DNA of 64,000 nucleotides, from the IMG/VR virus record IMGVR_UViG_3300013117_000027. One strand, 5' to 3'. Made by a program: the position numbers and the translations under genes. Positions 8,000-58,667 of the stretch are shown here, in pieces (position 1 is the first letter of the stretch; every line of letters starts with the position of its first letter). Under the pieces are notes generated by a model. That model was not told where the DNA came from, searched no databases, and saw only the letters and a list, made by a program, of their open reading frames with translations. Origin of the DNA: a virus.

Positions 8000-8025
8000 C
8001 TATACTAGATAGGTAAGGAGTATAT

Positions 8026-8202
8026 ATGTTTATAGAAGCTAACATTACAATAGATGTACCCGACGGCGTAGATATTACGCCTATTATACAACAAATAAAA
8101 GCAATACTAAGTCGTACTAACGACATGGATACAGATGTTCACATTATAGAAGTTGATGACCCTATAAGTACTAATCCTGTAAATTTATCAAAGGTTATAT
8201 AG
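8026..8202 (+). CDS. Small hypothetical protein (58 aa, absent from the ORF track)
   Basis: AAGGAG Shine-Dalgarno before ATG 8026; MFIEANITIDVPDGVDITPIIQQ...LSKVI; its stop abuts the next ATG at 8203. Confidence 0.7.
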   Translation: MFIEANITIDVPDGVDITPIIQQIKAILSRTNDMDTDVHIIEVDDPISTNPVNLSKVI

Positions 8203-8871
8203 ATGAAAATGTTCAAACAATGCTCTAAGTGTGGAGAGGTAAAAGAGTTAAGTGAGTTTAATAAAAAGAAAGATGGTAAGTTTGGTGTCCAAACTATGTG
8301 TAGAATGTGTAGAAGAGATTATAGAAAAAGGAACTATAATAAGGAAAAGAACGCATCACAATGTCGTAACTACAGACTTAATAATATTGATAAGTTTAAG
8401 TCTTATGATAAACTTTATTATATAAATAATAAGTCTTTGTGTAATAAAAGATCAAAAGAATACTATGAATCTAATAAAGATAGGTTAAAACTGATGCAAA
8501 AAAATAATAGATCTCATATAAATGCTAGCAGGAAACAACGTTATATCAATGATACTGGATACAGAATAGAATGTAATATAAGAAGTAGAATCTTTGGATC
8601 ATTGAATGGATTAAATAAATTCACATCTACAAGAGAACTAATAGGTTGTACAATAGATGAACTCAAAACGCATCTTCAGTCTACAGCTATTGTTAATGGT
8701 TACAAAGACTTCGATATTAATAGCTACTTAGGACAAGATTATCATATAGATCATGTACGTCCATGTTCATCTTTTAATCTTGAAGACGAAGAAGAACAAC
8801 AAAAGTGTTTCCATTATACTAATCTTCAGATTCTTTCTGCTGAAGAAAACCTTAAAAAAAGTAATAAGTAG
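8203..8871 (+). CDS. Free-standing HNH-type homing endonuclease with N-terminal CxxC zinc finger
   Basis: CSKC...CRMC; C-terminal YHIDHVRPCSSF...CFHYTNLQILSAEENLKK. Confidence 0.8.
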   Translation: MKMFKQCSKCGEVKELSEFNKKKDGKFGVQTMCRMCRRDYRKRNYNKEKNASQCRNYRLNNIDKFKSYDKLYYINNKSLCNKRSKEYYESNKDRLKLMQKNNRSHINASRKQRYINDTGYRIECNIRSRIFGSLNGLNKFTSTRELIGCTIDELKTHLQSTAIVNGYKDFDINSYLGQDYHIDHVRPCSSFNLEDEEEQQKCFHYTNLQILSAEENLKKSNK

Positions 8872-8879
8872 GAGACTTC

Positions 8880-11800: not shown

Positions 11801-14800
11801 AGCAGGATTTGAAGTAGATGATAACTTCGATGGTGCTCATAAGAATAGTCCTGATAAAGAGGATAGGAACTCAAGGATAGGTAAAGCTTTACAATATATG
11901 ACCTTATTATTTAATCCTGGATCTAACAATGATAAATGGATAATACAAGAGGTTAAGAATGAATCTGACACGGTTAGACTTAATAAGTCATTAGGTGATC
12001 TAAAGATAAAGACTATATACAAAGGTATTGTAAATGATATGGACAATCTACATTATCAACACGCTGGTGTTTTAATGCAAGGTGCCGAAAGAGCAAGAGG
12101 TTACTGGGAAATACTATGGTATGATCTTAGAAATAATAGTTCAGGTTTTATAGCAGGAACAATATTCGGTGCATTACTATGTTATCTAGCAGGAGCAGGA
12201 ACGTTTGTATGGACTGTATTCACCGGTATAGCAAGCTTACTAGGATTCGGTATACCTGGAGTCAAGACAGGTAAAGAAGCTGCTGTAGCAGCCACGTTTG
12301 ACATTTTATCAGAGTCATTACCTTCATTAATGAACGGTATTAAATCTTCTGTTGTACAAGATATGGTAAATAATATTATTAGAGATCCTGTTGCTAGAAG
12401 AAAGTTCTTTGATAATAAATATGAAGATATTGTCGGTGAGATATATTCTAGCGATGGTATGAACTGTTACGAAGACTTTGATATACCTACAAATTTTCTT
12501 GCTGGTTACACAGATGCTAATAATGATCCATTAGGTATAAAGTTTTCACCAGACTTCTATCTTTTCGATAAAGACTTTACTGGTATAGAAAAGTATTCTT
12601 ATGTTAATCAGTTCATAGACACTACATCTAGGATGGCCAAGCTCGCTTTACAGTTAACTCTTGAAGAAAATAAAGAAGTTATAGAAAAGTTAAAGCAAGT
12701 AGAAGAATTAATATTCGATGCATCAGAACTAGATAGTGTTGTTAAGCGTCAACTTTACGATGAAGTATCAATGACAACAGATGGTGGAACTAATACACAA
12801 ACTAATCAGACTATTGAAAGCGACATAAATAATAAGTTAGAAGAACTCAAGGACGTATATGTTCATCTTGCTCTTGATCAAAGAAATAATAAAGTTAATC
12901 CTGATGCACAGAAATTAAACCTAATGAGATCTGCTAGGAATAAGAGAGTATTAGAGTTAAAAGTTATTCAAACAGCTATCAATCTCGCTCTTGCTGGATC
13001 AAAATTAGACACAGATCATGGTAAAGATAAGTATTCAGGAACTAATCAACCAGCTTATTTATCAGACGACAAATCGTTGATAAGTGATACAAGGCTAAGA
13101 AGTTCCTTAGAAGGCGCGTCGTATCAACAACTAAGGAAGATGGCAGATCTTATAAGAAAATACTTTAGACATTATACTAACGAAGAACAAATGAAACACG
13201 AAGAAGTTATCAATAAAGATACACCAAGTATACGTTTTTTCGAAGAGACTGTATACACTCTTGTTACACAGTTAATAATCTTAGGAGATGCTATAGCTGA
13301 GTTCGAATCTGGTAATCTTACTGTTACGTCATTATTAACCGACATACCTGAGATGGGATTACTAGATTGGTATAACTGGAGAAATATAGATGATATCAAT
13401 GATAAGAAAATATCTTTAATGAGTGACTTCTTAGAAGAAGACACTAATAGAACTCGTGGGTATAACCAAAAAATGTTTCCTACATTTAAGGTATTCTTTG
13501 TAGAAGAAGATGGTAAGACTATAAGCGTAGATGACTACTACGCTTATAACGCTGTACAGTCTATAGACATTATTAAGAATAAGTATTCAGCATCTTCTAC
13601 CGCTGTTATAAAATTAGGTAACGTATACGGTAATCTTACTAATAAGATATCTTTAATGAAAGAATCTGATCAGATTCTAGACATACTTCTTAACCAAAGA
13701 GATAATAGAATATTCTTAGGAAGTCTAGATATTAAGCCAGGTGTTAAGATAATAGTAAAAATGGGATACGGAGCTAATGATAGAGATCTTAAGATAGTTT
13801 TTATCGGTAAGGTAGTAGAGATGAGTGCTGGTCCTATCACTGAGTTAGTAGCTCAATCTTACGGTGCACAATTATCACATGAGATTACTAAGATGCACTT
13901 TGGAGTTCTTAACTCTAGAAAAGAACATGGAGATATAGCATCAGCTGTTTTAGACGCTATACCATCATTAGATGGTCTAGGTAAACCATCACTCTTAGGA
14001 TTAAATCCAGTTAATTATAGTGGAAGACGTAGCGCTTTCTATGATGGAACATTGTTTGATAGATTCTTAATGTCTAATATAACTACAAGAGTTAATACCA
14101 CGTTGTTTCAAGAAGATAATCCTAGAGATGAGAACATATACCTTCCGGTGGATCTGATACCTGATATTACAAAGAACGTTACATTCGACTGGATAGTTTA
14201 TAATCAAACAGTATGGCAAGCTTTACATGAGTTAAGTCTTTATCACGATAATACTATTCCTATTATAAGACCTTATAATGATGGTATGTTCTCTACGTTG
14301 GATGACGCAAGAGAAACTATTGTAGTAGGTAAGAAGAGTGGGTGGTATAAACACACAGATGCATTCAGATATACTACAAGAGATATCGATAAACTAGGTA
14401 ACCTTATAGATGATTGGAACACTAAGTACTGGAAGTTCTTAATGGAATTAAGACAGAAGATACAGAAAACTAGAACTTTACTAATAGATGCACCATCTGG
14501 CCAAGCAGCTCCAAAAGATGTAATTCTTGCCGAGTACCTTGTTCAAGAAGGATTAATGAAGAAGGAAGTTCAAGAAGTAAGGAAGACTGGTATTGATGTT
14601 ACTGTTACTATTACTAATTACTATCCAAGAGGCAAGTTAAAGAATTTACTTGTAGGTCTGTCTAGTAAACAGTTAGCTCTCGTAGTTACTAAAGCTATAG
14701 AAGATAATGCTCCTCAGGTAGACACTAGAAATCTTGGTACTATGCAATTACTCGTAGACACTGTAGCTAGAGTTGTTCCAGGTATATGGGAAACTACAGC

Positions 14801-16283
14801 TAACAAACTAAGAACTTCTATATTAAAAGTAGGATTCAATGAAGCTATAAGTGATAGAAAAGCTGACGAAGTTATCGTCATGGAAAGTAGAGTATTTCAA
14901 AGAGCTAATTCTAGTCCAGGCACACCAACTGTTACTATAAGACATTCTATATTTGATGTTATACTTAACTTTGGTAGTGTGCCTCGACGATATGAGAATT
15001 TTGTACAAAGACTTAATGATCTTAAGCCTTATCAATTCTTAGGTGTGTCTGCTAAGGAGTTAGATAATAATCAAGATAAATTTGTTAACGATCCAAGATA
15101 TAGAAAGATTCAACGTCAACATTTAATAACAGATACTAGTGATATTATATCTAACGAGATAGTCTTATCTGAAGATTTTAACAACGCCGTGAAGGTATAC
15201 TATTTATCAGAACCTAAGTTTTATACAGACTTAGGAAGTATAAGTGCTGATGATCAAGAGAAGTTATCATGGGACACTGTTAAAGCTTTTGGAGATACAA
15301 GAGATACAGACGTACGACTTCTAGAAACTTATCAGAAGAACATAGATACAAACTGGTATGAGATACGAAAGTACAATGAGGAAGTTCTTGGTAAATATAG
15401 TACTATGTATAAGAAGAATAGAGAGTCAGATAATCAAAATAATAAGAACTATAAGATTACAATGAACGAATTACCATCTTACAAGAAAGTTGGTATTAAT
15501 CTTCTTATACGAGAAGTTGAAAAGATGTATAGAGGTAATATAACTATTATAGGAAATCCAGCTATAGAACCGATGGACATTGTTCATATAGAAGATTCTA
15601 TGAATAACATGGATGGACCTATAGAGATAGAAGAAGTTATACATTCATTCTCTCCCACAACCGGGTACACGACTACACTTACTCCTTCGTTAATAACATA
15701 CGATAGAGATCCTATAGCTATGAGTGATCTTAGTGTTATACATAGAATACTTACAACTGCTGAAAGTAAGAGAAGTTCTACAAGGATGTGGGCATTCGCA
15801 CAAGCAACTGCGGCTGGTATAGCTTCGACGTTCGCTATTGCTGACATAGTAGGTGGAACAAAAATAGGTGGTATTATGACACTTATAGGTACTGTTCCTG
15901 CTATGGCATCTTCGTTGTGGAATATGGTTGTAGGTGTAGAGAAAAGATATAACAAGTTCATATACGATCATATGGCAAATGTGTTCGGACGTGATTGTAT
16001 AAACTTCTCAGCTTTACACTACAAAGATAAACCTTATATGACAGGTTTTGGTGGTGTAGACTACACTAATATAAAGACATTAATAAATCACCAATGGCAA
16101 GGTCTTGGGGTTATAGAAAGATTAGCAACATCTAATGATGTAGAAGGTAAGTGGATTGAAAACTCAACATTCTCTAAAGATTTACCAGTATTTAAATATC
16201 TTCTTCAGGAAGATGTACCAGTTGTTGGTAAACCGTTATACTATATAATGAAATTCTTTGGAAACGATTCATGGGGACAATAG
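8880..16283 (+). CDS. Giant baseplate hub-like (gp27/GPD-fold-containing) virion protein, 2467 aa
   Basis: Hub-like segments IKPGVKIIVKMGYG...VFIGKVVEM...VAQSYG and MYRGNITIIGNPAIEPMDIVHIED...EVIHSFS..GYTTTLTP; lies upstream of gp25-like and baseplate-J genes; internal hydrophobic helices. Confidence 0.6.
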   Translation: MAVERYHFNSSATSDLSEVSYNQLSKYLKLKLHEVEKTSEKESNHTVVMEDLSQDPNPVWLSQYNVEILKEIRKTLFEDLEITKPPSLNSGRETLSMLDAPLPGDVLIINKSNPDTSKQYTIITSIDSGGRVYTFPATSEVDLRYVTHVYRFDILSDDNAAEIISKMNQTIEDAAILPKPRMSVDINVPVYTEEPRGLLQIGDIKFLIAPTQMSFTTQNGYQHFPTVRTKGNPKLPTLAETKSLNFTLIFPNTEAINNQLVPLYAMFKRTPFVNLYNRDISEFYSTIRNRDTKYIPVALESITVESVTGFPNTLQANITVLPFQHKGVGETFEALKTFGDVKSQQYLKRDISEGRVVEQIEARLENREATPHSNNMLTNVIHSSDNFEKSEPFRAFYQSLIAERKYVENDLGEIVYKTDGSSIPLSTFRPKHIENQLHYYSAQANKKNMTFTYEFIPQNLREFSDDLRALRKQEITTLGSETAEMLKIITSRDSKFKNFMREALINRQTFYDQIGNHFKKAERYIHDFLGFHRINIDSSPGPEITNLLELLLEVGAHQFPVTAWVTGTGRGVVSTTADLIKNVSDGNYSLGNTSGEELLNILNGVMTWYEGPDETRRLGAVDANTLSDIISDQILDYLDAVSDSKENGESEKEKWAQFFDRFFKAFVDPSIIRNLSAGQEIVAFKTERDIIEIDNVNDVVNGWGLQFSNKLVPIHLNGFQFPYYQHVGCDDVNIFLNIKSIQGGRDQGLKERLSLLNERLHTTTKIVTYNAPELITHLDPRLSVSVQGNDLGHIFNVFGIRKVVYNGSNVSSVEGKPDCWSINLNLTQANFTLKDYQSIVVKKSISGIEDEVANLLLRSRITPDGGIEVIDYKVNTDRLKDLDSVSPEATKGFVGKYFGDWAKSMIPNSTKDLVIPKEYVIGSPDNTNIFGDASLSGEQTRRINNMIMSMTFYKRFIQEAYEQWRGTQKDSEQEAGFEVDDNFDGAHKNSPDKEDRNSRIGKALQYMTLLFNPGSNNDKWIIQEVKNESDTVRLNKSLGDLKIKTIYKGIVNDMDNLHYQHAGVLMQGAERARGYWEILWYDLRNNSSGFIAGTIFGALLCYLAGAGTFVWTVFTGIASLLGFGIPGVKTGKEAAVAATFDILSESLPSLMNGIKSSVVQDMVNNIIRDPVARRKFFDNKYEDIVGEIYSSDGMNCYEDFDIPTNFLAGYTDANNDPLGIKFSPDFYLFDKDFTGIEKYSYVNQFIDTTSRMAKLALQLTLEENKEVIEKLKQVEELIFDASELDSVVKRQLYDEVSMTTDGGTNTQTNQTIESDINNKLEELKDVYVHLALDQRNNKVNPDAQKLNLMRSARNKRVLELKVIQTAINLALAGSKLDTDHGKDKYSGTNQPAYLSDDKSLISDTRLRSSLEGASYQQLRKMADLIRKYFRHYTNEEQMKHEEVINKDTPSIRFFEETVYTLVTQLIILGDAIAEFESGNLTVTSLLTDIPEMGLLDWYNWRNIDDINDKKISLMSDFLEEDTNRTRGYNQKMFPTFKVFFVEEDGKTISVDDYYAYNAVQSIDIIKNKYSASSTAVIKLGNVYGNLTNKISLMKESDQILDILLNQRDNRIFLGSLDIKPGVKIIVKMGYGANDRDLKIVFIGKVVEMSAGPITELVAQSYGAQLSHEITKMHFGVLNSRKEHGDIASAVLDAIPSLDGLGKPSLLGLNPVNYSGRRSAFYDGTLFDRFLMSNITTRVNTTLFQEDNPRDENIYLPVDLIPDITKNVTFDWIVYNQTVWQALHELSLYHDNTIPIIRPYNDGMFSTLDDARETIVVGKKSGWYKHTDAFRYTTRDIDKLGNLIDDWNTKYWKFLMELRQKIQKTRTLLIDAPSGQAAPKDVILAEYLVQEGLMKKEVQEVRKTGIDVTVTITNYYPRGKLKNLLVGLSSKQLALVVTKAIEDNAPQVDTRNLGTMQLLVDTVARVVPGIWETTANKLRTSILKVGFNEAISDRKADEVIVMESRVFQRANSSPGTPTVTIRHSIFDVILNFGSVPRRYENFVQRLNDLKPYQFLGVSAKELDNNQDKFVNDPRYRKIQRQHLITDTSDIISNEIVLSEDFNNAVKVYYLSEPKFYTDLGSISADDQEKLSWDTVKAFGDTRDTDVRLLETYQKNIDTNWYEIRKYNEEVLGKYSTMYKKNRESDNQNNKNYKITMNELPSYKKVGINLLIREVEKMYRGNITIIGNPAIEPMDIVHIEDSMNNMDGPIEIEEVIHSFSPTTGYTTTLTPSLITYDRDPIAMSDLSVIHRILTTAESKRSSTRMWAFAQATAAGIASTFAIADIVGGTKIGGIMTLIGTVPAMASSLWNMVVGVEKRYNKFIYDHMANVFGRDCINFSALHYKDKPYMTGFGGVDYTNIKTLINHQWQGLGVIERLATSNDVEGKWIENSTFSKDLPVFKYLLQEDVPVVGKPLYYIMKFFGNDSWGQ

Positions 16284-17110: not shown

Positions 17111-17619
17111 TGGATTTATTCGGAGGACGAGTAGATGTACATATGTCTTATGATGGAGATCTAGAGTTTGAACAAGGCGATATCAAGTTGGTACGTGGTA
17201 TAGATTATATAAAGCATCTTATATACAAGGTTCTTACAACAGAAAAAGGTGATTGGAAAATATATCCTCAAGAAGGTGGAAGTCCTGTAGTATTCTTAGG
17301 TGAACAAAACACTAGGGATACAGCTAAGTTACTAGAAGGACATTTAGTATCGTCATTATCAGAATACGTTTTACCAGCTACAGTAGAAGCCAGAGTAGTT
17401 CCTATATCTCATGACTCAGTAAAGTGTTACGTTGATATTATTATATTAGGTCTTACTATTGCACAAGTTCCATTTATGCTTGATTATATTAACGGTATAA
17501 AGTATGAAGACTTTGACGAGACAGTAGATACGGTAGTCGCATCTAAAGAGCACAGACCGAACGATAATCGTTCGCTCACAAATCCTAATCCGTATCTAGA
17601 TAGAATAAGGAGACAATAA
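17110..17619 (+). CDS. gp25/GPW-like baseplate wedge (sheath initiator) protein
   Basis: GDLEFEQGDIKLVRGIDYIKHLIYKVLTTEKGDWKIYPQEG pattern; directly upstream of baseplate J. Confidence 0.7.
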   Translation: MDLFGGRVDVHMSYDGDLEFEQGDIKLVRGIDYIKHLIYKVLTTEKGDWKIYPQEGGSPVVFLGEQNTRDTAKLLEGHLVSSLSEYVLPATVEARVVPISHDSVKCYVDIIILGLTIAQVPFMLDYINGIKYEDFDETVDTVVASKEHRPNDNRSLTNPNPYLDRIRRQ

Positions 17620-18884
17620 TGGCAACACGCAGAAACTTCATAGACGTACAGAATGACGCAAAGTATAGGTTAGAGAACTTCACACCTGTAACATCTTTCG
17701 AGAATCTAAGTACTTCTATGACTCTTATAAATATACTTAGTAACGAGACAGAGAAGTTGTATGATGAAGCTGAGTATCTTTTCAGTATAAATGATATAAC
17801 AAGAGCTTATGGTAGAGATCTCGATAATATAGGAAGGATTATAGGATCCGAACGAGGGGATGCTACCACATCTAATGATATGACATATACTAATTTCTAT
17901 TTTTATCTTGACACGAGGTTAGGAATAGATATAGGTACGTTAATCGATAGAGTTTATCCTACAAGTACTCACTATAATATTAGACAAAGATTAGAAGATC
18001 AAGGTTATATAGATAATAAAGATGTTCCTACTCAGTTAAAACTTCCTAGAGGTATGTACGTGTCCAGCGACGATAGACGTATACTTTATACTACAGTTGA
18101 AGACGCTTATCTAACAAATGATTCTAACGAGGTATACGTTCCTGTCATAGCAACCGCTACAGGATCCGGACAGAATGTTGGAGCTAATGTTATTATAAAG
18201 CATTCTCTTAACGAGGTTAATATTATAAAAGATCTATCTAAGTATATACTTTGTACTAATAGATTCCCTATTACAAACGGATCGAATACTGTAAGTGATG
18301 ATGACTATAGATATAATATGTCTATTAGTAGAATAAACCTTGGTGCGAACGAGGTAGCTATACGACAAGCCGCTCTTTCTGTACCAGGTGTTAGAAACGT
18401 TCTGTTTGAGCGCGCAAGATTTGGTAATGGTACATTTAATCTTATAGTAGAAGGTGTTAGTCCTCTTGTATCAGAAGGTCTTGTTACTACAGTAAAAGAG
18501 AGAGTCCAAAGTATCGTAGGTGGAGACTCAGTATATGTTCACAGACCTGAGTACATAGGCGTTGAACTGAACTTAGATCTTATTACAGAGGTAGGTACAG
18601 ATACTGATCTGTTAAGAGAGACTGTTAGAAATGATATTATATCATATATAAATGATACTACTATAGGCGGAAGACTTATATGGAACCAATTAGTAGATAT
18701 TATTATAAGAGAGGGCGTTATAGACTTTGTTCTATCTTACTACAAGTTCGGAGAATATGACATCTTTAACAAGATAAACCTTAACCAAATAGTATTAAGA
18801 CCTTCTAATCAAGGTGCTAATTATAACGAGAAATTTTATATTGATGCGGGATTGTGTTCCATCTGTGTTAGGGAGCAGGGTTAA
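17619..18884 (+). CDS. Baseplate J-like wedge protein
   Basis: AYGRDLDNIG..IG..R; VPVIATATGSGQNVGAN; TNGSNTVSDDDYRY; AALSVPGVRNV. Confidence 0.85.
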   Translation: MATRRNFIDVQNDAKYRLENFTPVTSFENLSTSMTLINILSNETEKLYDEAEYLFSINDITRAYGRDLDNIGRIIGSERGDATTSNDMTYTNFYFYLDTRLGIDIGTLIDRVYPTSTHYNIRQRLEDQGYIDNKDVPTQLKLPRGMYVSSDDRRILYTTVEDAYLTNDSNEVYVPVIATATGSGQNVGANVIIKHSLNEVNIIKDLSKYILCTNRFPITNGSNTVSDDDYRYNMSISRINLGANEVAIRQAALSVPGVRNVLFERARFGNGTFNLIVEGVSPLVSEGLVTTVKERVQSIVGGDSVYVHRPEYIGVELNLDLITEVGTDTDLLRETVRNDIISYINDTTIGGRLIWNQLVDIIIREGVIDFVLSYYKFGEYDIFNKINLNQIVLRPSNQGANYNEKFYIDAGLCSICVREQG

Positions 18885-18887
18885 TGA

Positions 18888-21167
18888 ATGAACGGTAAGA
18901 ATGTATATTTTTCTAATAACACTGGTAGGATTATCAATGCTGTTGTTCCTGAACACTTTAAGATGGCCAGTGACAAGACCTCTAATGGGTACAAGTATGT
19001 AAATCTTCTCTACACTATAGAAGTAGATTTACTGTACGATTATCTAGATGACGCTAGGTATAGTAATAGTCTTGAATATTTTGACTACGGAACAGACTAT
19101 GATTATTTCGAGGTTACTCTTAACGAGAATGTTATTAGTGATACTGTTTATGGTGACAATATACCTATTAAGATAACTACACAACAAGAGTTTAATGACG
19201 GATTTCCTACGCGATTTAATATTGAATCTATTATACCAGTAAGTGGAGTAAGTTATGGCGCGTTAGGAATAGAGTACGTAAGAAAAACAGCTGAGGGTTC
19301 TGGTGTTCTTCTTATTAATACTGACGTAGACGCTTCTGAAATATTTCCTTCTGGTTATCAAACTATATCAATCAATATAGATCCTGTCGGAAGAGGTGTG
19401 TATGGTTCACCTTTATCTGGTTATAACTTTTTGGTAAGAGAACAGTCTTACGATGTAGCAGGTAATGATGAGATAATAGTCCCTCCTACAAGGCAAGAAC
19501 TCTTACAGTTATATCCTGAACAAAAAAAGATATGGGCCCAGTCTGGTGTAAGTGAGTTTTCTTATAACTATTGGGTTGATCATTATACTCCTAACAATGG
19601 AGCAGTGTGGAATGACACTTTAAAAACTTGGGAAGCGCGCGGATATTCAGAAGATTATTATCTTGATATGAATAATAACAAGGTGTACTATCGTACGTTT
19701 CTTAACAATCCACATGGTACAGGTAATTATAATGAAACGTATATGCCTTTAAAGTATGTTCCTATTAGTGGGACGTTTAAACTTTATGATCTAGATATAC
19801 TTCAAAGTGGACAGCTCGTCAATATAGATGCATCAGGAACTACATTGTACATACATAGTGGTATGTATGACTTTAGTCAGTTCGATGATAGAGATGAATG
19901 GTTCTCTCCTTACAAAGGTTATGATGAAAATGTTCCTCATGAATTTATTCCTAATGGTTACAAAGAGTTAAATCCTACAGGAGTTCTTCCTGCGATTCCT
20001 TACCAAGAAGTATCTTGGGAGTTACAACACGAAGGTGCAAGAGTAGGAGACGATTTTACATGGCAAGACGACGATACAGAACCTATTACTAATATGCTTA
20101 AGATTAAGAATGGCCAGAGTAGGTATATAGCAGAGTACTTTTATAAGATAGCTAATAAGATAGGTTACCTAACAACATTAGATTCTACCAAGTATATACG
20201 TTATGGTAATGGTAACTATACTTTCTCTATACAAGATATTACTAACAATAGACAAGAGTTTGATGTATCTTTATCCAAAGATCCTACAGATAGGAAAGCA
20301 GCTTGCTTTCATGGACTTCTTGTAAGACCATTTAGTACTATTGATCAATTAAACGTTACTTTCGACGTTGCATCAGATCCATTAGATCTTCAGGACTCTA
20401 GTATAAATATTTACGCAAGAGCACCTAAAGTTGGAACATCTTACAGCGAGATAAAACCTATTATACATGATAAACGAACTTATATGTTTAATAAACATTG
20501 GGGAGATGTTGATCTTTCTGGAGTAGTAGATCTTCATCAAGCTACAAATGATATAGTTTCTAGTGTACCATATGGTACATATAAAGGTGTATCGCTTATA
20601 CACGTTGACACTAGCGAGAATACTTACTATGAAACAATAGGTCAGTATTCTGGTTATATGGATCTTATAACAGAAACTTCTACTAATTCTAATAGATATG
20701 TTAAGATGGGATTTAAGGTAACAAAGAGAGTTGGTGATGTAGGTGAGCAAATGCTAGCAATGTCATGTAATTCAAGCGGAGAGTTTTGGGCACTAGATCT
20801 ACTTCCTAATGGAAGATTTAGAGTTAGGGATAATCTTAATACACTTATAAGTTATGACGGTATATTTGAAGAAGGAGATAACTTTGAAAGAGAACTTATT
20901 CTTGAGCGCGATACTGATTATGATTATGGTCCAGGTTTATATCCTTACCGACTTTATACAAGATCAACAGATACTAATCAAAGAGTAGCAGATAGTAGAA
21001 AAGATATATTTACTCAACATGGATTTGACTTAAGCGTTAACGCAAATGATCCTTCTGGAATTGTTGGTGATGTGTACGACTTTACTAAGTTATTTTACAA
21101 TACATGTACTGACATAGAATATGTACAAATTTATGAAGAATCAAGGGAGTTCGTAGATGGCCAATAA
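18888..21167 (+). CDS. Putative baseplate/tail structural protein, Ser-Gly rich
   Basis: 759-aa ORF following baseplate J; acidic, aromatic-rich. Confidence 0.5.
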   Translation: MNGKNVYFSNNTGRIINAVVPEHFKMASDKTSNGYKYVNLLYTIEVDLLYDYLDDARYSNSLEYFDYGTDYDYFEVTLNENVISDTVYGDNIPIKITTQQEFNDGFPTRFNIESIIPVSGVSYGALGIEYVRKTAEGSGVLLINTDVDASEIFPSGYQTISINIDPVGRGVYGSPLSGYNFLVREQSYDVAGNDEIIVPPTRQELLQLYPEQKKIWAQSGVSEFSYNYWVDHYTPNNGAVWNDTLKTWEARGYSEDYYLDMNNNKVYYRTFLNNPHGTGNYNETYMPLKYVPISGTFKLYDLDILQSGQLVNIDASGTTLYIHSGMYDFSQFDDRDEWFSPYKGYDENVPHEFIPNGYKELNPTGVLPAIPYQEVSWELQHEGARVGDDFTWQDDDTEPITNMLKIKNGQSRYIAEYFYKIANKIGYLTTLDSTKYIRYGNGNYTFSIQDITNNRQEFDVSLSKDPTDRKAACFHGLLVRPFSTIDQLNVTFDVASDPLDLQDSSINIYARAPKVGTSYSEIKPIIHDKRTYMFNKHWGDVDLSGVVDLHQATNDIVSSVPYGTYKGVSLIHVDTSENTYYETIGQYSGYMDLITETSTNSNRYVKMGFKVTKRVGDVGEQMLAMSCNSSGEFWALDLLPNGRFRVRDNLNTLISYDGIFEEGDNFERELILERDTDYDYGPGLYPYRLYTRSTDTNQRVADSRKDIFTQHGFDLSVNANDPSGIVGDVYDFTKLFYNTCTDIEYVQIYEESREFVDGQ

Positions 21168-23385
21168 AGATATATTTGTTAGAGCAGTAGCATCAGGAGA
21201 CGGAACAGGTCTCGACTGGTATAATGCTTATACTACATTACAAGATGCTCTTACAGAGGCAATGGCTGAGCCTGCAGCTAACACAGTTAACGTATATGTT
21301 GATGATGATATTTACACGTTGGCTTCTCTTACAGTCAGTCATAACTCAATTAATCTGTATGGTGGTAATATTCTTACTGCTGACGTTGTTGTGTCTGGAT
21401 ATAATGAGATACCTGTTGGTACAACTTTTAAAAGTATTGTTTACCTAGAAGACTCAGTGTACGTACAAAGTGGTGTATTTATAACAGATTCTGTTAGGTT
21501 TATTAACTCTTCTGGAGGCTACGCTATCCAAGGTGAAGATCTTACTGACATACTTCTGAAGAAAGTTAACTTTGAAACAGACTACGGTATTGATACTAGT
21601 GGTAATCTTAGATGTGAGTTCATAAATGCTATATCGTATACTCCTCAGGAGTATACATATGGATTTGGAGGTTCTTACATAGCAGAGTCTGGATATTCGG
21701 ACGCATTGTCTGGCAACATATTTATTAATAGTGTCGGAGAAGAGACAGTAGTTAATAATTCCTCAATGATAGGTTACTATAACACTATAGTATTTAATGG
21801 TATCAACGACAATGAATGTATTATAGACGACGTACTTATAAAGCAGGCATCTAATGGTATAGTTTATCAATCAGTGGGCGGTAGTGGTACATTGCGTACC
21901 AATAATATCGTTATATACGATACAGATAAATCTTTCTTATTTAAAGATACTACTATATCAGGTGGATTAAACGGAGAGATAGGTAACTGTACATTATATA
22001 CACCTTATTCATTCTCTATATCTCCTATGATAACAGGTCTTATACAGATAACAGATTCTATAATGTCCGGCGAAATGATCTACGGAGACGGTTCTCTTAC
22101 TCTTACTACAGAGTACACTTTATTAGATACTACTCCCAGTGGTTACGGATTTGTTCCTGGAACAGGTATAGTCTATGGAGATCCTAAGTATATAGATGTA
22201 ACAAAAGGTGACTTCAGTCTTGGAATAGGTACTGCTGACGATAGAGTATCATCTGATGGTCTTAATGTGGGATCTTATACAGAGATAGGAAGAAGTATAC
22301 AATTGTCTGACTCCAAAGGATTTAGATTATCAGATTCAAGTGTAGAAGGATATGATATGTTCTTACATAAGAGCGACGAGACCGTCGTATGGTCAGATCA
22401 TATGAAAGAGATTCCTATGGCCACATTTAGAGATAATAATGGTACGTTATCGTATGTTTATAATCATACTACTACAGTAGTATTGTCTGGTGTTGTTACT
22501 ATTCCTGCATTTTCTAGAGAACCTTCTTTAAACGATTGGATGTACGAATGGGACTATGAGATAATGAACAGTCCTGGTATCGAGAATAATCCTAGGATCA
22601 TTCCTAAGTCTATTATAGATATTACAAATATCTTACAGAATATAGACTACGGTAAGAATAAATCTAATATAAGCGTAAGAGCATTTAAGAATATAGATAA
22701 TAGAGGCATTAGTTATGACTATGACTCTTCTAACAATACAAGTAAAATCGTATGGTCTTTGGATGGAGATCAGATGTTAACAAAGACAGACTTTTGGAAC
22801 GGAAACGTTATAGATAAGTATCCACTTGTTCCTCCTATTCATCCTTCTGGTGAGAAATTATTTATTAAACCTTCTGGACTTATACCTTATGGAGTTAATA
22901 AATATGTGACAGAGGATGATCCTGATACTATCCTAGAAAGTGTAAATGATGACGGTTCGTTTGAATGGTTATCTACAGAGAAACATAGGAAGTGGGATTT
23001 AAAAGGTATTTTAACTCATAAGGGAACTATGTATGTAACAGCATCTTTTGCTGACCAAGCATCTACAACTCCTTACGTTCTAATATATCCTAGTAGAGGT
23101 TACTATGCTGATTATCAATGTCCTGATCCTACAAAGTTAGAATTACACGATGATAACAATGATCCAAGAGGCATAACTGTTTATGAAGACGGAAGCATTC
23201 TTATTAGCAACTACGATGTTATGTCATCCGGAATTGCTAACTATGTGAATATATTTCACTATAAGCCATGCTTTGACTATGCTTTAAAAGAAAATAATAA
23301 CTATATGAATACAAAACTTATACTTCGTGAGGCTTATGACGAAGTAACATTAGAACAGGCATTAGAAGAGCCTGATACACCATAA
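21157..23385 (+). CDS. Virion protein with N-terminal right-handed beta-helix (pectate-lyase-like) region
   Basis: IFVRAVASGDGTGLDWYNAYTTLQDAL start and GDPKYID..KGDFSL end are typical of beta-helix domains; the C-terminal part looks beta-propeller-like (PRGITVYEDGSILIS). Confidence 0.55.
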   Translation: MANKDIFVRAVASGDGTGLDWYNAYTTLQDALTEAMAEPAANTVNVYVDDDIYTLASLTVSHNSINLYGGNILTADVVVSGYNEIPVGTTFKSIVYLEDSVYVQSGVFITDSVRFINSSGGYAIQGEDLTDILLKKVNFETDYGIDTSGNLRCEFINAISYTPQEYTYGFGGSYIAESGYSDALSGNIFINSVGEETVVNNSSMIGYYNTIVFNGINDNECIIDDVLIKQASNGIVYQSVGGSGTLRTNNIVIYDTDKSFLFKDTTISGGLNGEIGNCTLYTPYSFSISPMITGLIQITDSIMSGEMIYGDGSLTLTTEYTLLDTTPSGYGFVPGTGIVYGDPKYIDVTKGDFSLGIGTADDRVSSDGLNVGSYTEIGRSIQLSDSKGFRLSDSSVEGYDMFLHKSDETVVWSDHMKEIPMATFRDNNGTLSYVYNHTTTVVLSGVVTIPAFSREPSLNDWMYEWDYEIMNSPGIENNPRIIPKSIIDITNILQNIDYGKNKSNISVRAFKNIDNRGISYDYDSSNNTSKIVWSLDGDQMLTKTDFWNGNVIDKYPLVPPIHPSGEKLFIKPSGLIPYGVNKYVTEDDPDTILESVNDDGSFEWLSTEKHRKWDLKGILTHKGTMYVTASFADQASTTPYVLIYPSRGYYADYQCPDPTKLELHDDNNDPRGITVYEDGSILISNYDVMSSGIANYVNIFHYKPCFDYALKENNNYMNTKLILREAYDEVTLEQALEEPDTP

Positions 23386-23395
23386 GGAGATTAAG

Positions 23396-24655
23396 ATGGC
23401 ATATCCACAAGGTAACGCATCTCAAAATATGGACTTAGGGATTTACTCGTCTGACTTTAGTCCTGATATAACCGTAGCTGGTATAGTAGATAATCATACA
23501 ACTGTAAATAAGTTAGGATTACGTAATTCATTAGGTAACCAAATTTCGTTGCTACAAAATTTTGTATGTGAGCAATATTTAGGACGTCTATCTAGTCCTG
23601 TTGGTAGTGGATATATAAACTATCTAAGAGGTGGTCAGTATAGTAATATACATTACGGTATAGATCCAACAGGTACAGGTTCTTATACTTATGCTGAACC
23701 TGGTATCCTAATGACGAAGTATGTATACGATACTTCTACAAGTGGGGTAACTATAAGTGAGAGTGATATTAACTCTTATAGAACAATAGGAACAAGAACT
23801 TATCAAAGTAAAGCAAATGGTAGTTGGATCCAATTAAACGACTACGCAACAGATGGTACATGGTCACAATGGGGCTCTGGACTTTTAAAAATGGTTGCAG
23901 GATATGGTAACGATAGTTCTAACTTTTCTAGTTTTATAATGAAATCTACAGGAGATATCATCTTAGATACTGGTCCAGATCCTTACACATCAGAGGTAAT
24001 AATAAGTGGTAATCTTTCCCTCCCTACAGTTAATGCTACAATGACTATACATAATGACTTCGGTAATAATCAATTATTTATGGACGGAGCCACATTCGCA
24101 CTTAATAACTATTCTACAGGCAATAATACACAACTATTTCCTAGTTCAATACAGATGACACAAAATGCATCTATATACGGATTTAATAATTTTGCTTTGA
24201 ACGGTAACGGTCCTATTATACTTAACTCAGAACGAGGATCTTTCAATGAATCTTATCTTACTATGAGTGGTGAGAATATATATATTCAAGCTGATAGAAT
24301 GTTCTTAGAAGGTGAAGTATATATAAGTGGTACATTGTATAGTGATGGGGATAACAATATAATGCTTAGACAAAATCCTTTGATATCTTTATCACAACAA
24401 GCTTATACGTCTGTAGCAGCAGGAAATATTCTTGTAGGTTCAGGTACTACAAGCTACATGACTTTAAAATTTGAAGAAACAGAACCTGATACAATAGAGA
24501 TATACGGAAGAAATCACTTAAGATTAGGCGCACTACAAAACTTACTGTTAGGATACAATACTAATATAATCATAGAAGGTGGACTACCATCATCTGATCC
24601 ATCTGTATCAGGTGCGTTGTATGAGTCATCTGGTGTAGTAATGATCTCATTATAA
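23396..24655 (+). CDS. Putative tail fibre/spike protein
   Basis: G/S/T/N-rich beta-strand sequence ending LPSSDPSVSGALYESSGVVMIS; AGGAG SD. Confidence 0.45.
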   Translation: MAYPQGNASQNMDLGIYSSDFSPDITVAGIVDNHTTVNKLGLRNSLGNQISLLQNFVCEQYLGRLSSPVGSGYINYLRGGQYSNIHYGIDPTGTGSYTYAEPGILMTKYVYDTSTSGVTISESDINSYRTIGTRTYQSKANGSWIQLNDYATDGTWSQWGSGLLKMVAGYGNDSSNFSSFIMKSTGDIILDTGPDPYTSEVIISGNLSLPTVNATMTIHNDFGNNQLFMDGATFALNNYSTGNNTQLFPSSIQMTQNASIYGFNNFALNGNGPIILNSERGSFNESYLTMSGENIYIQADRMFLEGEVYISGTLYSDGDNNIMLRQNPLISLSQQAYTSVAAGNILVGSGTTSYMTLKFEETEPDTIEIYGRNHLRLGALQNLLLGYNTNIIIEGGLPSSDPSVSGALYESSGVVMISL

Positions 24656-24664
24656 GGAGTATAA

Positions 24665-26263
24665 ATGGCTAAGCCTGTAAAAAAGAATAGATGGACTAAC
24701 GTAGATGCGTTCGCATTACTTAACGGTATAAGTACTTGGGATAAGAATTATCTTAATCTTAAGTATGTTCGTATACCTGGTGAAAGTAATATAGAACTAA
24801 GACAAAAAATTTATAATAGTCATTCAAATCCAGCTGAAGATACGTCTTTACAAAGTCTTATTCGAGGTCTTTCTAACGAGTTAAATCTTACTACATATGA
24901 TATAGAATCAAAGACTACGTTTGATCTTATACGAACACCATTTCCATCAGGAGATGTTGGGATTCAAGATATATGGCTTTTCTACAAGCCACCTGGTAGT
25001 GGAGAATGGTACGAGATAGCTCCACAATTATGGGGATCTGGCTATTATACTGACTATGAAGCTAGCGAGACACAGTCTTCTGGATTTATAGTGTGGGAAG
25101 AATCTTACTATAAAGATTCGTTAGGAGTTACTACTAAGACTAGTACGTATAGTACTTTACTAAGTGTGCTTCCTAATCCTAATCTCGAAGTTCCTCTTGT
25201 TGATAAGAGTCTCATAAAGATTATATACAATGTAAGACTTTATGATAAAGATAATAATTCTTCTACTTATCTTTACACTGATATGCCCAACGAGTATGAT
25301 GTAGATGACGATAGACTCATATATAGAATACCTTATGTTGTTCAATCAGGCGATTACTATAATTCAGTTATAGCTTATCATCTAGATGAGGTACAAAGTT
25401 TTGCATCTGGTCTTTACTATACGTCTGGCGGTCTACCTACAGGGATGCTTTATAAGTTAAGAGACATCATAGATAATAACTTTCAACATAAATGGAAGAA
25501 TGTAAGAGATAAACAATCTATATGGGATGTACATAAAGATTACAGTAAAGGTACTATACAAAGTTTCTATGATATACCTACTGTTGTTTCTCCAGAGAAT
25601 TCAGGAGAAGCATTAGATGTAGAAGATCTTTTTACCGGCGGTATAGAGTATCAAGATCCAGTACTTAATATATCAGATATATATATATCAGAAGAAGACT
25701 CTGTAGAGAGATGGTATCCTATCATGTATCCTGGCAAGTTCTATATAGGTGGTCAACAATATTACCTAATGGAGAATCCACAGTTTTCTACTATTGAGTT
25801 ATTAGATAGTTACTCGGATATATATGGTACTTGTGGTTCAGGAGTTCTACCATCTGGTATAGAAAGATGGTATAAGATTATAACACACTTTAATAGTAAT
25901 CCTTCTGGTGAAAGTTTTGTGTTTGAAGACTACAATTATAAGATACCATATAGACAATATGATCCTAATGACGCATCAGGTCTATATAACTTTAACACTT
26001 TGATATACAGAAAAAGACCTTATATTACAGCTGCAATGGGATATCAATTAGATCTAGGTTCTGGTGAATATAATATCGACTTTGATCAATCACCTCCTGT
26101 TATACATGTTAGTGGGGTGCATAATACAGAGTTAAACATTGTATGGGATGAGGTTACCGTTCCTAGTGGACGTATATGTAGTAACGATTATGCTGATCTT
26201 AATCCTTTAAATGGAGACAATGTAGACTTTAGTAAGTATTTCTTTGTTATAGGAGATGAGTAA
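24665..26263 (+). CDS. Putative baseplate wedge/tail protein
   Basis: N-terminal RIPGESNIELRQKI resembles the R..GE.D..YR.RI motif of baseplate wedge proteins; AAGGAG SD. Confidence 0.5.
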   Translation: MAKPVKKNRWTNVDAFALLNGISTWDKNYLNLKYVRIPGESNIELRQKIYNSHSNPAEDTSLQSLIRGLSNELNLTTYDIESKTTFDLIRTPFPSGDVGIQDIWLFYKPPGSGEWYEIAPQLWGSGYYTDYEASETQSSGFIVWEESYYKDSLGVTTKTSTYSTLLSVLPNPNLEVPLVDKSLIKIIYNVRLYDKDNNSSTYLYTDMPNEYDVDDDRLIYRIPYVVQSGDYYNSVIAYHLDEVQSFASGLYYTSGGLPTGMLYKLRDIIDNNFQHKWKNVRDKQSIWDVHKDYSKGTIQSFYDIPTVVSPENSGEALDVEDLFTGGIEYQDPVLNISDIYISEEDSVERWYPIMYPGKFYIGGQQYYLMENPQFSTIELLDSYSDIYGTCGSGVLPSGIERWYKIITHFNSNPSGESFVFEDYNYKIPYRQYDPNDASGLYNFNTLIYRKRPYITAAMGYQLDLGSGEYNIDFDQSPPVIHVSGVHNTELNIVWDEVTVPSGRICSNDYADLNPLNGDNVDFSKYFFVIGDE

Positions 26264-26760
26264 TGAGACGTAAAAGAAGACCAAATCTTATAATAACTAA
26301 TCGTAGTGTACTTCCATATAATATAGATGGTGATACTATGAAATTCAAGATTATATATCGCGATGATCAACAGCAAAGTTATGTTGCTGGTATTAGTGGA
26401 TACGTATATGGTAATATAGGAGTTAGTGGCGCTACTATTAATATGGGTCTATTTGTGACTGACAAGTTTGGTCAATGTGACTTCTTATATAATACCGACT
26501 TAATAGAAGATAGGAATATAAATACTGCTAAGTTTTGGGCTTCTGGAGTTCATGAAAATTGGGGACTAGATGTTAATTCTTGTATAGCAAGAGCAGACTA
26601 TATATACATAGATCAACTAAGCGGTATTATTATAACAGCTGGTACTTGTGGAGACTTTAATGATCTTGGAACAAGATATGACTTTGATGAATTTGATGGA
26701 TATAGAATAACAGAATCAGGATTAAATAATATTACTGTTATAGAAAGGCCTTGGATATAA
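26263..26760 (+). CDS. Hypothetical virion protein
   Basis: TAATG overlaps on both sides; 165 aa. Confidence 0.5.
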   Translation: MRRKRRPNLIITNRSVLPYNIDGDTMKFKIIYRDDQQQSYVAGISGYVYGNIGVSGATINMGLFVTDKFGQCDFLYNTDLIEDRNINTAKFWASGVHENWGLDVNSCIARADYIYIDQLSGIIITAGTCGDFNDLGTRYDFDEFDGYRITESGLNNITVIERPWI

Positions 26761-31770: not shown

Positions 31771-31778
31771 GAGTTTAA

Positions 31779-37263: not shown

Positions 37264-37271
37264 GAGAACTA

Positions 37272-45756: not shown

Positions 45757-45783
45757 ATTTTCCTTTCTATATAGTACTTTATA

Positions 45784-45812
45784 AATATACGTTATTTGCA
45801 TATGATTGTCAA
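45784..45812 (-). promoter_or_regulatory. Sigma70-like promoter for the Cas4-like gene
   Basis: TTGACA-atcatatgcaaataacg(17)-TATATT on the minus strand. Confidence 0.75.
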
Positions 45813-58230: not shown

Positions 58231-58667
58231 GACTTAACTTAGGATGTGGATCCGTCAAACATGACGGGTTCACTAATGTAGATATACTAGACAATGATAA
58301 TGTAGATATTGTTCATGATCTCAATCAGATACCATGGCCGTTCGAAGATGAATCTATAGAGGAGATAATAGCAGAGGATGTGTTAGAACATTTACAGGAT
58401 ACACCAGCTATTATGAATGAAATGTGGAGAATATTAGAAGACGGTGCGACAGCAACCATTCAAGTTCCCGACGTAATAAGAAATCCTCAATCAGCATACA
58501 CCGACCCAACACATATACGTTTCTTCACCGATAGAACATTTGATTATTGGGATGAGAATACAGAGTTTGGTGAGAAGTATGGATACTATTATGATAATAA
58601 ATACTCAATTATACATAAGTCATTCCCTTACGGTAATGTAAAAGTAGTGATGCAGAAGGTGACATAA
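58224..58667 (+). CDS. Class I SAM-dependent methyltransferase (type 11-like)
   Basis: LNLGCG...NVD...HDL..PWPFED; DVLEHL; EMWRIL; DPTH. Confidence 0.85.
   Translation: MLRLNLGCGSVKHDGFTNVDILDNDNVDIVHDLNQIPWPFEDESIEEIIAEDVLEHLQDTPAIMNEMWRILEDGATATIQVPDVIRNPQSAYTDPTHIRFFTDRTFDYWDENTEFGEKYGYYYDNKYSIIHKSFPYGNVKVVMQKVT

Follow-up and report, generated by a model that had tools for sequence, protein, structure and literature searches.

A viral contig of 64,000 nucleotides (IMG/VR record IMGVR_UViG_3300013117_000027; "the window" below means this whole stretch) carries, directly after the gene for a gp6-like baseplate wedge, five genes whose products are rich in the dipeptide Ser-Gly (SG), and the locus raises the question of what that dipeptide is for. 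The initial annotation took SG to be an O-glycosylation site written by the phage's own glycosyltransferase (GT) cluster. Our analysis suggests that SG looks like a selected surface tag on outward-facing virion proteins, most plausibly a site of sugar attachment. The lineage concerned consists of contractile-tailed phages of 140-230 kb, with six contigs of the group in IMG/VR.

Ser-Gly excess in the post-wedge proteins

An exact count gave 57 SG in the 2,617 aa of the five proteins (2.18 per 100 aa), against a composition-based expectation of 19.5 (observed/expected [O/E] 2.92; Poisson P = 4e-12), distributed as follows.

18888..21167, plus strand: first post-wedge protein, 759 aa; 13 SG, O/E 3.2; 2 GS
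21157..23385, plus strand: 742-aa protein; 15 SG, O/E 2.6; 6 GS
23396..24655, plus strand: Ser/Gly-rich protein, 419 aa; 9 SG, weak O/E of 1.6 (P = 0.07); 6 GS
24665..26263, plus strand: 532-aa protein; 15 SG, O/E 4.4; 4 GS
26263..26760, plus strand: 165-aa protein; 5 SG, O/E 6.5; no GS

The initial annotation had counted correctly except in the second protein, to which it gave 14 SG, and it was right that the reverse dipeptide is the rarer one, both in the 759-aa protein (2 versus 13) and over all five (18 versus 57). The per-protein O/E calculation that it proposed as a check shows that the excess survives correction for composition and that it is directional and specific to serine. Within-protein shuffles gave P < 0.001 for four of the five proteins (P = 0.07 for the 419-aa protein), and among all 400 dipeptides SG is the sole strong outlier (z = 8.5; runner-up, z = 3.2). 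Amino acid composition and local Ser/Gly-rich loops are ruled out as causes by the O/E values of GS (0.92), GG (0.54) and TG (0.82); those of NG and DG are 1.02 and 0.82. One quarter of the serines, and likewise of the glycines, lie inside SG. The dipeptide is encoded by 14 different codon pairs, used as often as Ser and Gly codon usage at large predicts; this rules out a DNA-level motif or codon-pair bias, and an SG-specific excess with ordinary codon use means that selection acts at the level of the protein. A general depletion of Ser-Ala was considered and set aside: that dipeptide is missing from the five proteins (8.1 expected), yet its value in a larger set is 0.85. Pfam and PHROGs searches with all five proteins, the 759-aa protein included, returned no match.

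The SG sites are scattered along the length of the proteins, with no periodic spacing found, and this aperiodicity, together with the absence of any BLASTP match among the 14 post-wedge proteins, argues against paralogy or a single duplicated domain. The sites share a fuller motif, hydrophobic-x-[Ala/Pro]-Ser-Gly-[Val/Tyr/Ile]-[aromatic/Leu], in which positions -3, -1, +1 and +2 are hydrophobic (V/I/L/P, A/P, V/Y/I and Y/W/F/L). This extended motif is enriched 8.5- to 9.5-fold in outer proteins and about 1-fold in non-virion genes, and the values for NG, TG, GS and DG with two hydrophobic residues after them are only 0.6-1.8. Lys, Arg, Asp and Glu are depleted from -4 to +6 of SG, with Asp/Glu depletion at -1 and +3, and Lys content is low in the SG-rich proteins (4.5% versus 8.5%).

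Outer virion proteins and the spread of the trait

Enrichment begins at a sharp edge, and the genes that define it and those that carry SG further downstream are listed here.

677..16283, plus strand: two giants (2440 aa and 2467 aa) that occupy the tape-measure slot; SG-depleted as a class
17619..18884, plus strand: gp6-like baseplate wedge (phrog_6, E = 1.6e-28); 1 SG, neutral; the edge of the enrichment
37272-38651 and 38651-41866, plus strand: two distal structural proteins, 459 and 1071 aa; O/E 2.6 and 2.2, orthologs 2.6-5.0

The low SG content claimed for the two giants is borne out (8 and 11 in 4,907 aa, or 0.39 per 100 aa). Pooled over four genomes, the giants hold 82 SG against 127.6 expected (0.64; P = 1e-5), with GS at 1.04, so that SG is rarer in them than in non-virion proteins, which are neutral, and the form hydrophobic-x-[APCLV]-S-G does not occur in them at all (5.9 copies expected). 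An endonuclease gene sits between the two giant-protein genes. Clusters of SG had also been reported at 35224-41866, and the peptide quoted for them is encoded at nucleotide 40196, in the 1071-aa protein, where enrichment is moderate. The division between outer and internal proteins extends even to the inside of one protein: 12 of the 14 SG of the sheath protein fall in an inserted domain, where about 4.3 are expected, and the sheath core has 1-2 against about 3.3. In the head module an Ig-like Big_5 protein, probably a head decoration, has an O/E of 3.4, and the capsid protein shows a milder excess (O/E 2.1). Tube-like proteins (O/E 0.5-0.8), gp25, gp6, the protease and the portal candidate are SG-neutral.

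The same step is seen in seven of nine related genomes, in which the gene directly after the gp6-like wedge takes O/E from below 1 to about 3 (pre-wedge values 0.14-0.9, post-wedge values about 3.1-3.3 in the relatives). The enrichment sets in jointly for the post-wedge proteins in the window, G002, G003, L006, L051, L053 and L055, and at least 10 unrelated families within a genome share this switch; the excess is thus a genome-level trait across unrelated proteins. All orthologs of the 759-aa protein (G001, G002, G003, L051, L053, L055 and L006) have O/E values of 3.1-3.8. Those of the 742-aa protein lie at 3.2-4.0 in SG-rich relatives and at 1.25 in G001, and those of the 419-aa protein at 1.9-2.9. 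For the 532-aa protein 46 homologs were found, with a family O/E of 4.38 (GS 0.81), and 42 of them hold 457 SG where 104 are expected.

In this family the individual sites turn over, with 82 alignment columns used for about 10.9 sites per protein. When the Ser of SG is replaced, Asn, Asp and Thr account for 40% of cases. At the columns where SG is most frequent, SG-poor homologs carry ET, ND, RD, DK or NN, and the P0029 and G001 orthologs likewise have charged or polar pairs there, which shows that the fold has no need of SG. The SG-rich state is ancestral, with two nested losses. G001 is SG-weak, having lost most SG in four post-wedge proteins, and L004 (JGI contig Ga0502773_0000373) is the only SG-negative relative. 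Genomic GC content is rejected as the cause, since SG-rich L053 has 27% GC and SG-negative L004 has 34%. The fibres of two cultured phages have O/E values near 1, and a tblastn search of cultured phages with the 532-aa protein gave no useful match.

Glycosyltransferases and sugar islands

The cluster that the initial annotation proposed as the writer of the motif occupies 53.9-64 kb of the window.

53918..56539, plus strand: GT4-like glycosyltransferase bearing an intein, with intein and LAGLIDADG domains; candidate writer
57094..58230, plus strand: GT1-family glycosyltransferase, 378 aa (PF13692, PF00534)
58224..64000, plus strand: lineage-specific sugar genes, assigned by Pfam: methyltransferase, FnlA-like dehydratase with an intein, UDP-GlcNAc 2-epimerase, RmlD-like reductase and the start of a GT32-like gene (from 63539)

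As a link to the whole cluster that proposal is wrong in detail. Of the sugar genes listed, the GT4-like gene alone is conserved in all relatives searched, with orthologs of 44-48% identity in G001-G003 (that of G002 free of the intein) and others in G005 and G006; G002 and G003, both SG-rich, lack homologs of the FnlA-like, RmlD-like and methyltransferase genes, which indicates that these three are not required for the trait. The UDP-GlcNAc 2-epimerase has only a weak match (27%), in G003, and the GT1 protein is 46% identical to the product of a G001 gene and 21-25% identical to the GT1 of about 385 aa in G002 and G003. The conserved GT gene heads co-oriented sugar islands, which differ from relative to relative. 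The GT families identified by Pfam in the window cluster and in 18 island genes of G002 were GT1/GT4, GT8, GT9 and GT32-like only. Among 66 island ORFs of four genomes none has two or more TM-like segments and one has a single segment; the priming transferase, flippase and polymerase or ligase of a lipid-carrier pathway (Wzx/Wzy or OTase) were not found in the islands.

The AF2 model of the conserved enzyme (pLDDT 85, pTM 0.87) has a GT-B fold with two Rossmann domains. Its best fold match is chlorovirus B736L (3oy2; Foldseek E = 2e-20, TM 0.79 on the target), with MshA, BshA and PimB' next in order, and its best PDB sequence matches are B736L (E = 1.2e-6) and PimB'. The EX7E region is present, E355 being at least 90% conserved and E363 invariant in 13 sequences, and no TM segment was found. 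About 100 extra residues contain an invariant set of His and Cys, which at a guess from sequence might form a metal site. The gene adjoins a primase-helicase gene, outside the virion module, a location that speaks against the enzyme as writer of the motif. A role in T4-type DNA glucosylation was considered: the PF00303 hydroxymethylase (thymidylate-synthase type) is absent from G001, G002, G003, G005 and G006 (completeness at least 95% for three of these genomes), and the control search recovered it in 10 of 14 reference genomes; its absence from the five genomes is evidence against such a role.

GT genes, orthologous or analogous, are present in G001, G002, G003, G005 and G006, and the conserved GT and the GT1 of about 385 aa occur in every reasonably complete relative. 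Co-occurrence of GT and SG, which the initial annotation offered as a check, gave no sign of co-variation among the genomes searched, as SG-weak G001 keeps the conserved GT together with two GT1 genes. A JGI scan with the conserved GT gave 21 matches, the SG-negative contig not among them, the inclusion of its sample in the collection being unconfirmed. The cultured phages TJE1 and S-CBS4 have GT relatives of 23-26% identity and no clear SG excess, and are too distant to weigh either way.

Possible roles of the Ser-Gly motif

Glycosylation of the SG serines is a plausible reading of these data, and we infer that the motif has an enzymatic reader acting in trans, that the conserved GT fills this role and that what is attached to the serine is a sugar. 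We give somewhat less than an even chance to the proposal that the motif is under selection on outer proteins and that its serine is O-glycosylated by soluble phage enzymes, with the conserved GT as the leading candidate. More tentatively, Ser-Gly in a hydrophobic turn may be the sequon of a phage-encoded, cytoplasmic O-glycosylation that is independent of lipid carriers and consists of a GT4-like primer, often with an intein, and variable islands. The motif would mark exposed turns on peripheral baseplate and fibre proteins, the Ig-like head protein, the sheath insertion and, mildly, the capsid; a soluble enzyme of the phage would modify its serine in the cytoplasm, O-glycosylation of the folded outer proteins being begun by the product of 53918-56539 and the glycan extended by the variable soluble sugar enzymes of each phage (in the window, putatively the GT1, the methyltransferase, an Fnl-type acetamido-sugar pathway and the GT32-like enzyme). 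Each phage would thereby have a glycan coat particular to it, covering baseplate, fibres, sheath and head decorations, and proteins that travel inside the tail or are ejected through it would have been purged of the sequon.

A different possibility is that Ser-Gly is a structural idiom of the lineage, with which its beta-rich outer proteins would build a tight turn before a strand where other proteins use Asn-Gly, Asp-Gly or Pro, with no enzyme as reader and nothing attached. In the single AF2 model of the 532-aa protein (pLDDT 75; no fold match in a Foldseek search of the PDB), 10 of the 15 SG are in coil or at the edge of a strand, and about half of the sites immediately precede a beta-strand, as such a turn would predict. 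The hydrophobic neighbours, the Asn, Asp and Thr among the replacements, the mild enrichment (1.8-fold) of NG with two hydrophobic residues and the retention of GTs by SG-weak G001 are in keeping with it as well. Nevertheless, we regard the idiom as rather unlikely. The P0029 and G001 orthologs have the same folds without SG at the main columns, the SG effect is 3.5-4 times that of the NG or TG equivalents, beta-rich buried proteins (tube-like, gp25 and gp6) are unenriched, unrelated families switch on jointly, the giants actively avoid the motif, and in the same model sites occur in helices and strands as well as in turns. From substitution tolerance and domain position we infer that the sites are exposed to solvent.

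Much of the evidence that favors a reader of the motif would suit one other than a GT, such as an enzyme of phosphorylation, acylation or nucleotidylation, or an assembly chaperone that recognizes SG as a mark of outer tail proteins. The genome-level pattern, its restriction to outer proteins and the turnover of sites fit such a factor equally well, as do the strict specificity for Ser (TG near 1) and the lack of demonstrated GT/SG co-variation. We nonetheless think it improbable, because no kinase, acyltransferase or other candidate is found among the genes of the window region conserved across four genomes, the conserved enzymatic feature that stands out is the large soluble sugar islands, and chaperone motifs so short or so dense are not known. 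A similarly low probability attaches to selection by the environment with no modification, in which charge-poor Ser-Gly turns would lower susceptibility to proteases or unwanted adhesion: the limitation of SG to the outer surface, the depletion of charged residues around it and the low Lys content agree with this idea, but it explains neither the preference over Thr-Gly, Gly-Ser and Asn-Gly nor the avoidance of SG by the giants, and it has no known precedent.

With glycosylation as the favored reading, comparison with known systems shows partial likenesses. Xylosylation of animal proteoglycans, to which the initial annotation had likened the sites, requires acidic residues beside Ser-Gly and is carried out by enzymes of a GT family other than GT4. 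The acceptor dipeptide and the strict use of Ser over Thr are the same here, but the analogy breaks down in that Asp and Glu are depleted near SG, the flanks are hydrophobic or aromatic and the fold of the conserved GT is GT-B of the GT4 type. In chloroviruses the capsid is glycosylated by virus-encoded cytoplasmic enzymes, independently of host machinery, at atypical sequons for N-linked glycans and not at Ser-Gly. Chlorovirus B736L (of PBCV NY-2A) is the closest protein to the phage GT in both sequence and fold, although identity is only 18-23%, it differs by the extra residues with their His/Cys set, and its own substrate is not established. Staphylococcal SdgA and SdgB and streptococcal GtfA are cytoplasmic Ser-O-GlcNAc transferases of GT4 fold, and SdgB reads a dipeptide context, Ser-Asp. 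SdgB and GtfA are among the fold matches of the phage GT (E of about 1e-13 to 1e-12), at ranks (32-48) no better than those of many small-molecule GT4 enzymes; the substrates of these three transferases are disordered tandem Ser-Asp or Ser-rich repeats, whereas the sites considered here are spread over beta-rich proteins that are folded.

The bacterial autotransporter heptosyltransferases TibC/AAH act in the cytoplasm on TibA and AIDA-I, beta-rich surface proteins that are folded and become heavily glycosylated on many serines, and the enzyme recognizes its substrate by means of a Cys-bound metal module (PMC4358343). TibC, however, is dodecameric and uses ADP-heptose, the phage GT has no homology to it, and the top fold matches listed for that GT are all GT4 enzymes, TibC not among them. 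In mycobacteriophages, virion glycans added by phage-encoded GTs are reported to sit on capsid and tail-tube subunits, at the C-terminus of each (PMC12619734, summarising Freeman et al. 2023, Cell Host Microbe 31:1216, PMC10527164). Those phages and the present lineage are alike in being tailed and having soluble GT genes of their own, with which the phages here would decorate exposed virion proteins before release from the cytoplasm, the glycan here being putative. They differ in that the candidate sites here form a dispersed, not C-terminal, dipeptide on baseplate, fibre, sheath insertion and Ig-like head protein, the tube being unenriched and the capsid only mildly enriched. To our knowledge, glycosylation of virions by phage enzymes is established in very few cases, and a sequence rule in none.

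Were SG a glycosylation signal, glycosylated phage surfaces would be predictable from sequence across metagenomes, and the large sugar islands without membrane export genes in many large environmental phages would be explained. A modifying enzyme would then have left an unusual footprint across the proteome, in that proteins inside the tail avoid the motif. If its role is purely structural, SG is still a striking lineage-specific rule for the turns of outer proteins; if it is a sequon, it would give a direct handle on the part played by a glycan coat in host recognition, virion stability and escape from receptors or antibodies.

Ser-Gly excess downstream of the baseplate wedge gene

The window has all its large genes on the + strand, where two giant proteins occupy the usual tape-measure position and a block of five proteins (759, 742, 419, 532, and 165 aa), with no Pfam and no PHROG matches, follows the baseplate wedge gene.

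Main features of the window
677-7999 and 8880-16283, + strand: two giant proteins, usual tape-measure position
between the giants and the gp25-like gene: 271-aa protein
17110, + strand: gp25-like protein (phrog_975)
17619-18884, + strand: gp6-like baseplate wedge protein (phrog_6, E 1.6e-28)
18888-26760, + strand: five Ser-Gly-rich proteins, immediately 3' of the wedge gene
downstream of the five proteins to 41866, + strand: further structural genes
49014-52433: primase-helicase with intein, past the structural genes and before the sugar-gene cluster
53918-56539, + strand: GT4-like glycosyltransferase with intein, sugar-gene cluster
57094, + strand: GT1 glycosyltransferase, sugar-gene cluster
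59377-61452: FnlA-like dehydratase with intein, sugar-gene cluster
also in the sugar-gene cluster: methyltransferase, UDP-GlcNAc 2-epimerase, RmlD-like reductase, start of a GT32-like gene

The inteins of the primase-helicase, the GT4-like transferase, and the FnlA-like dehydratase all contain homing-endonuclease domains. Two endonuclease VII/HNH-like genes (phrog_1035) within the structural block, at 8203-8871 and 31779-32438, match one and the same gene in the related genome G001, and likewise in G002, and are probably mobile homing elements. Directly past the structural block lies a patatin-like phospholipase gene (43489-44376) that lacks homologs in G001, G002, and G003. A 358-aa protein of unknown function (44725-45801, - strand) has orthologs in all four genomes (41 to 45% identity) and contains 4 Ser-Gly dipeptides (SG), versus 0.8 expected, only in the phage of the window.

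The initial annotation held that SG is enriched in the five proteins and that the reversed pair, GS, is not, so that composition alone could not be the explanation. Both points stand after composition correction. SG counts of 13, 15, 9, 15, and 5 total 57 in 2,617 aa, versus 19.5 expected from each protein's composition (observed/expected [O/E], 2.9; Poisson P, 4e-12), compared with an O/E of 0.92 for GS. Within-protein shuffles gave P values of <0.001 for four of the five and 0.07 for the Ser/Gly-rich 419-aa protein. SG was the sole outlier among the 400 dipeptides (z, 8.5; runner-up, 3.2), and O/E was 0.82 for TG, 1.02 for NG, 0.82 for DG, and 0.54 for GG. The 57 SG are written with 14 codon pairs in proportions matching ordinary Ser and Gly codon use, which rules out a DNA word as their source and implies that the signal is selected at the protein level. 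A single duplicated domain is also ruled out as the source, since BLASTP found no similarity among 14 proteins encoded after the wedge gene.

The comparison covered nine genomes or contigs. Besides the window, these were six IMG/VR records (G001 to G006), of which two are complete and carry terminal repeats, and a single contig each from Logan and JGI. Seven of these nine show a rise in SG O/E from values of 0.1 to 0.9 upstream of the wedge gene to about 3 downstream. Public data yielded 46 homologs of the 532-aa protein, and the 42 that were aligned (32 to 52% identity) contain 457 SG, versus 104 expected (O/E, 4.4), with GS at 0.81. SG enrichment is a trait of the phage lineage, not of a single genome. 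Base composition as its cause is ruled out by L053 (27% GC), which is SG rich, and L004 (34% GC), which is SG negative. As an outside baseline, tail proteins and fibres of two cultured phages lie near an O/E of 1; a Ser/Gly-rich 995-aa fibre, for example, has 24 SG and 23 GS.

One homolog of the 532-aa protein (P0036, on a 229-kb contig) is assigned in NCBI to a 'Candidatus Omnitrophica bacterium' MAG; its contig probably represents a phage genome of this group that was sorted into a bacterial bin. The group is similar to, but not necessarily the same as, the moraphages (PMC12619734). Those large phages come from freshwater; their core genome includes contractile-tail and baseplate genes and four glycosyltransferase families, and no tape-measure gene can be recognised in them.

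Sequence context and location of the motif

The context of SG, derived from 471 sites in 38 proteins, favours V, I, L, M, or P at position -3, A or P at -1, V, Y, or I as the first residue past the Gly, and Y, W, F, or L as the second, and both flanks are depleted in K, R, D, and E. In an outer set of proteins defined solely by position, the longer motifs are the more strongly enriched: 2.5x for SG, 5.9x for [A/P]SG, 6.4x for SG plus two hydrophobic residues, 8.5x for hydrophobic-x-[APCLV]-SG, and 9.5x for hydrophobic-x-x-SG-hydrophobic-hydrophobic. The last two are absent from the giants (5.9 and 2.3 copies expected, respectively), and the extended motifs are near 1 in nonvirion genes. Control motifs with NG, TG, GS, or DG ahead of two hydrophobic residues reach only 0.6 to 1.8, so a generic "turn before a strand" effect would amount to about 1.8x at most.

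In the complete genome G003, O/E is 2 to 4 for the proteins encoded after the wedge gene, 3.4 for an Ig-like Big_5 protein of the head module, 5.6 and 2.3 for two unknown proteins of that module, 2.1 for the major capsid protein, and 1.9 for the sheath. The portal candidate, protease, terminase, tube-like proteins, gp25, and gp6 are SG neutral, as are nonvirion genes (0.91 to 0.95). The giants (window 677-16283 and orthologs in G001 to G003, pooled) fall below this neutral level, with 82 SG versus 127.6 expected (O/E, 0.64; P, 1e-5) and normal GS (1.04). Within the sheath, 12 of 14 SG (about 4.3 expected) lie in residues 196 to 470, a poorly conserved insertion separating the PHROG-matched N- and C-terminal core, which itself has 1 or 2 SG versus about 3.3 expected. 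In the contractile sheaths known so far, inserted domains project outward and the conserved core faces the tail interior. In the simplest summary, SG is rich on outer surfaces and neutral or depleted in inner parts.

A conserved glycosyltransferase and variable sugar islands

SG had initially been read as O-glycosylation sites written by the phage's own glycosyltransferase cluster (53.9 to 64 kb). The link does not extend to the cluster as a whole: the FnlA-like, RmlD-like, and methyltransferase genes have no homologs in G002 and G003, both SG rich, the 2-epimerase has a 27% match in G003 only, and the GT1 gene at 57094 has relatives of just 21 to 25% in these two genomes. The GT4-like gene at 53918 has orthologs of 44 to 48% identity in G001 to G003 and is also found in G005 and G006, always 3' of the primase-helicase and heading a co-oriented sugar island. 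Its orthologs carry an intein in G003 (1253 aa) and G005 (about 1240 aa) and lack one in G001, G002, and G006 (480 to 494 aa); that a glycosyltransferase should carry an intein suggests strong conservation of the gene. The model has a confident GT-B/GT4 fold (pLDDT 85), and the closest relative by both sequence and fold is chlorovirus B736L; the Ser-O-GlcNAc transferases SdgB and GtfA are among the matches, at unremarkable ranks. H63, C66, C67, C105, C166, and C298, invariant in 13 aligned orthologs (alignment A4), lie within and beside an N-lobe stretch that standard GT4 enzymes appear to lack. To judge from the sequences, they could form a metal-binding module, recalling the TibC iron finger in role but not in sequence. 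The cultured siphovirus Tetrasphaera phage TJE1 has a 23% relative of this transferase within a sugar-gene cluster, and its pooled distal tail proteins (orf38-41, 30112-33495) show a weak signal, with 19 SG versus about 7.7 expected and 7 GS.

The G002 island (55840-74443, ~18 kb; L015/L016) encodes GT9-like, GT8-like, and GT1 enzymes, a DegT aminotransferase, B12 and SPASM radical-SAM enzymes, a cytidylyltransferase, an aldolase, and a HAD phosphatase, a chemistry unlike that of the window's Fnl-type genes, and no membrane proteins. No polytopic membrane protein was found among 66 island open reading frames from four genomes, implying that the islands lack a flippase, a polymerase, and an enzyme for lipid-carrier priming and hence that the acceptor should be soluble. 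The five genomes searched contain no thymidylate-synthase-type hydroxymethylase, which speaks against DNA glucosylation of the T4 type.

SG enrichment was not seen to covary with the glycosyltransferases. Every relative with a reasonably complete genome, the SG-weak G001 among them, encodes the conserved transferase and a GT1 of ~385 aa, so glycosyltransferase presence or absence does not track the SG trait in this sample, outside which the one truly SG-negative relative, L004/P0029, falls. Matches to the transferase in JGI metagenomes did not include the L004/P0029 contig, whose sample may lie outside the collection scanned.

Site turnover and possible readers of the motif

In the AF2 model of the 532-aa protein (pLDDT 75), which has no fold match in the PDB, 10 of the 15 SG lie in coil or at strand edges, with 3 more in helices and the remaining 2 within strands. 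Across the family alignment, conservation of SG serines (0.44) exceeds that of other serines (0.26) but is only about average among all residues (0.42). At least one member has SG in 82 columns, with about 10.9 sites per protein. Where the Gly is lost, the Ser is kept in just 13% of pairs, and the two residues thus behave as a unit. The commonest SG columns read VG, ET, QG, ND, RD, DK, or NN in SG-poor homologs; these are permissive, charge-tolerant positions, and the family fold, judged from this alignment, does not need SG. Both major clades of the family tree (quick maximum-likelihood search, midpoint root) contain SG-rich members, and the SG-poor lineages G001/P0028 and P0029 are long branches nested inside SG-rich clades, indicating two derived losses. 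The loss in G001 is partial, since the first protein after the wedge gene and three others retain O/E values of 2.3 to 3.4.

The main rival to a modification is that SG is a lineage-specific way to build turns, with nothing attached. We consider this rather unlikely, yet it keeps real weight because the site context is turn-like and the glycosyltransferases do not covary with the trait. What probability remains is split between a different modification or reader of SG and surface selection acting directly, with no modification involved. Overall, the data fit best with a motif selected for density on exposed virion surfaces and counterselected in tail-internal proteins, a combination that points to a trans-acting reader. 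That reader would be a soluble phage glycosyltransferase, which we regard, at a little short of an even chance, as the most plausible candidate because a GT4-like enzyme is conserved and the sugar islands are free of export genes.
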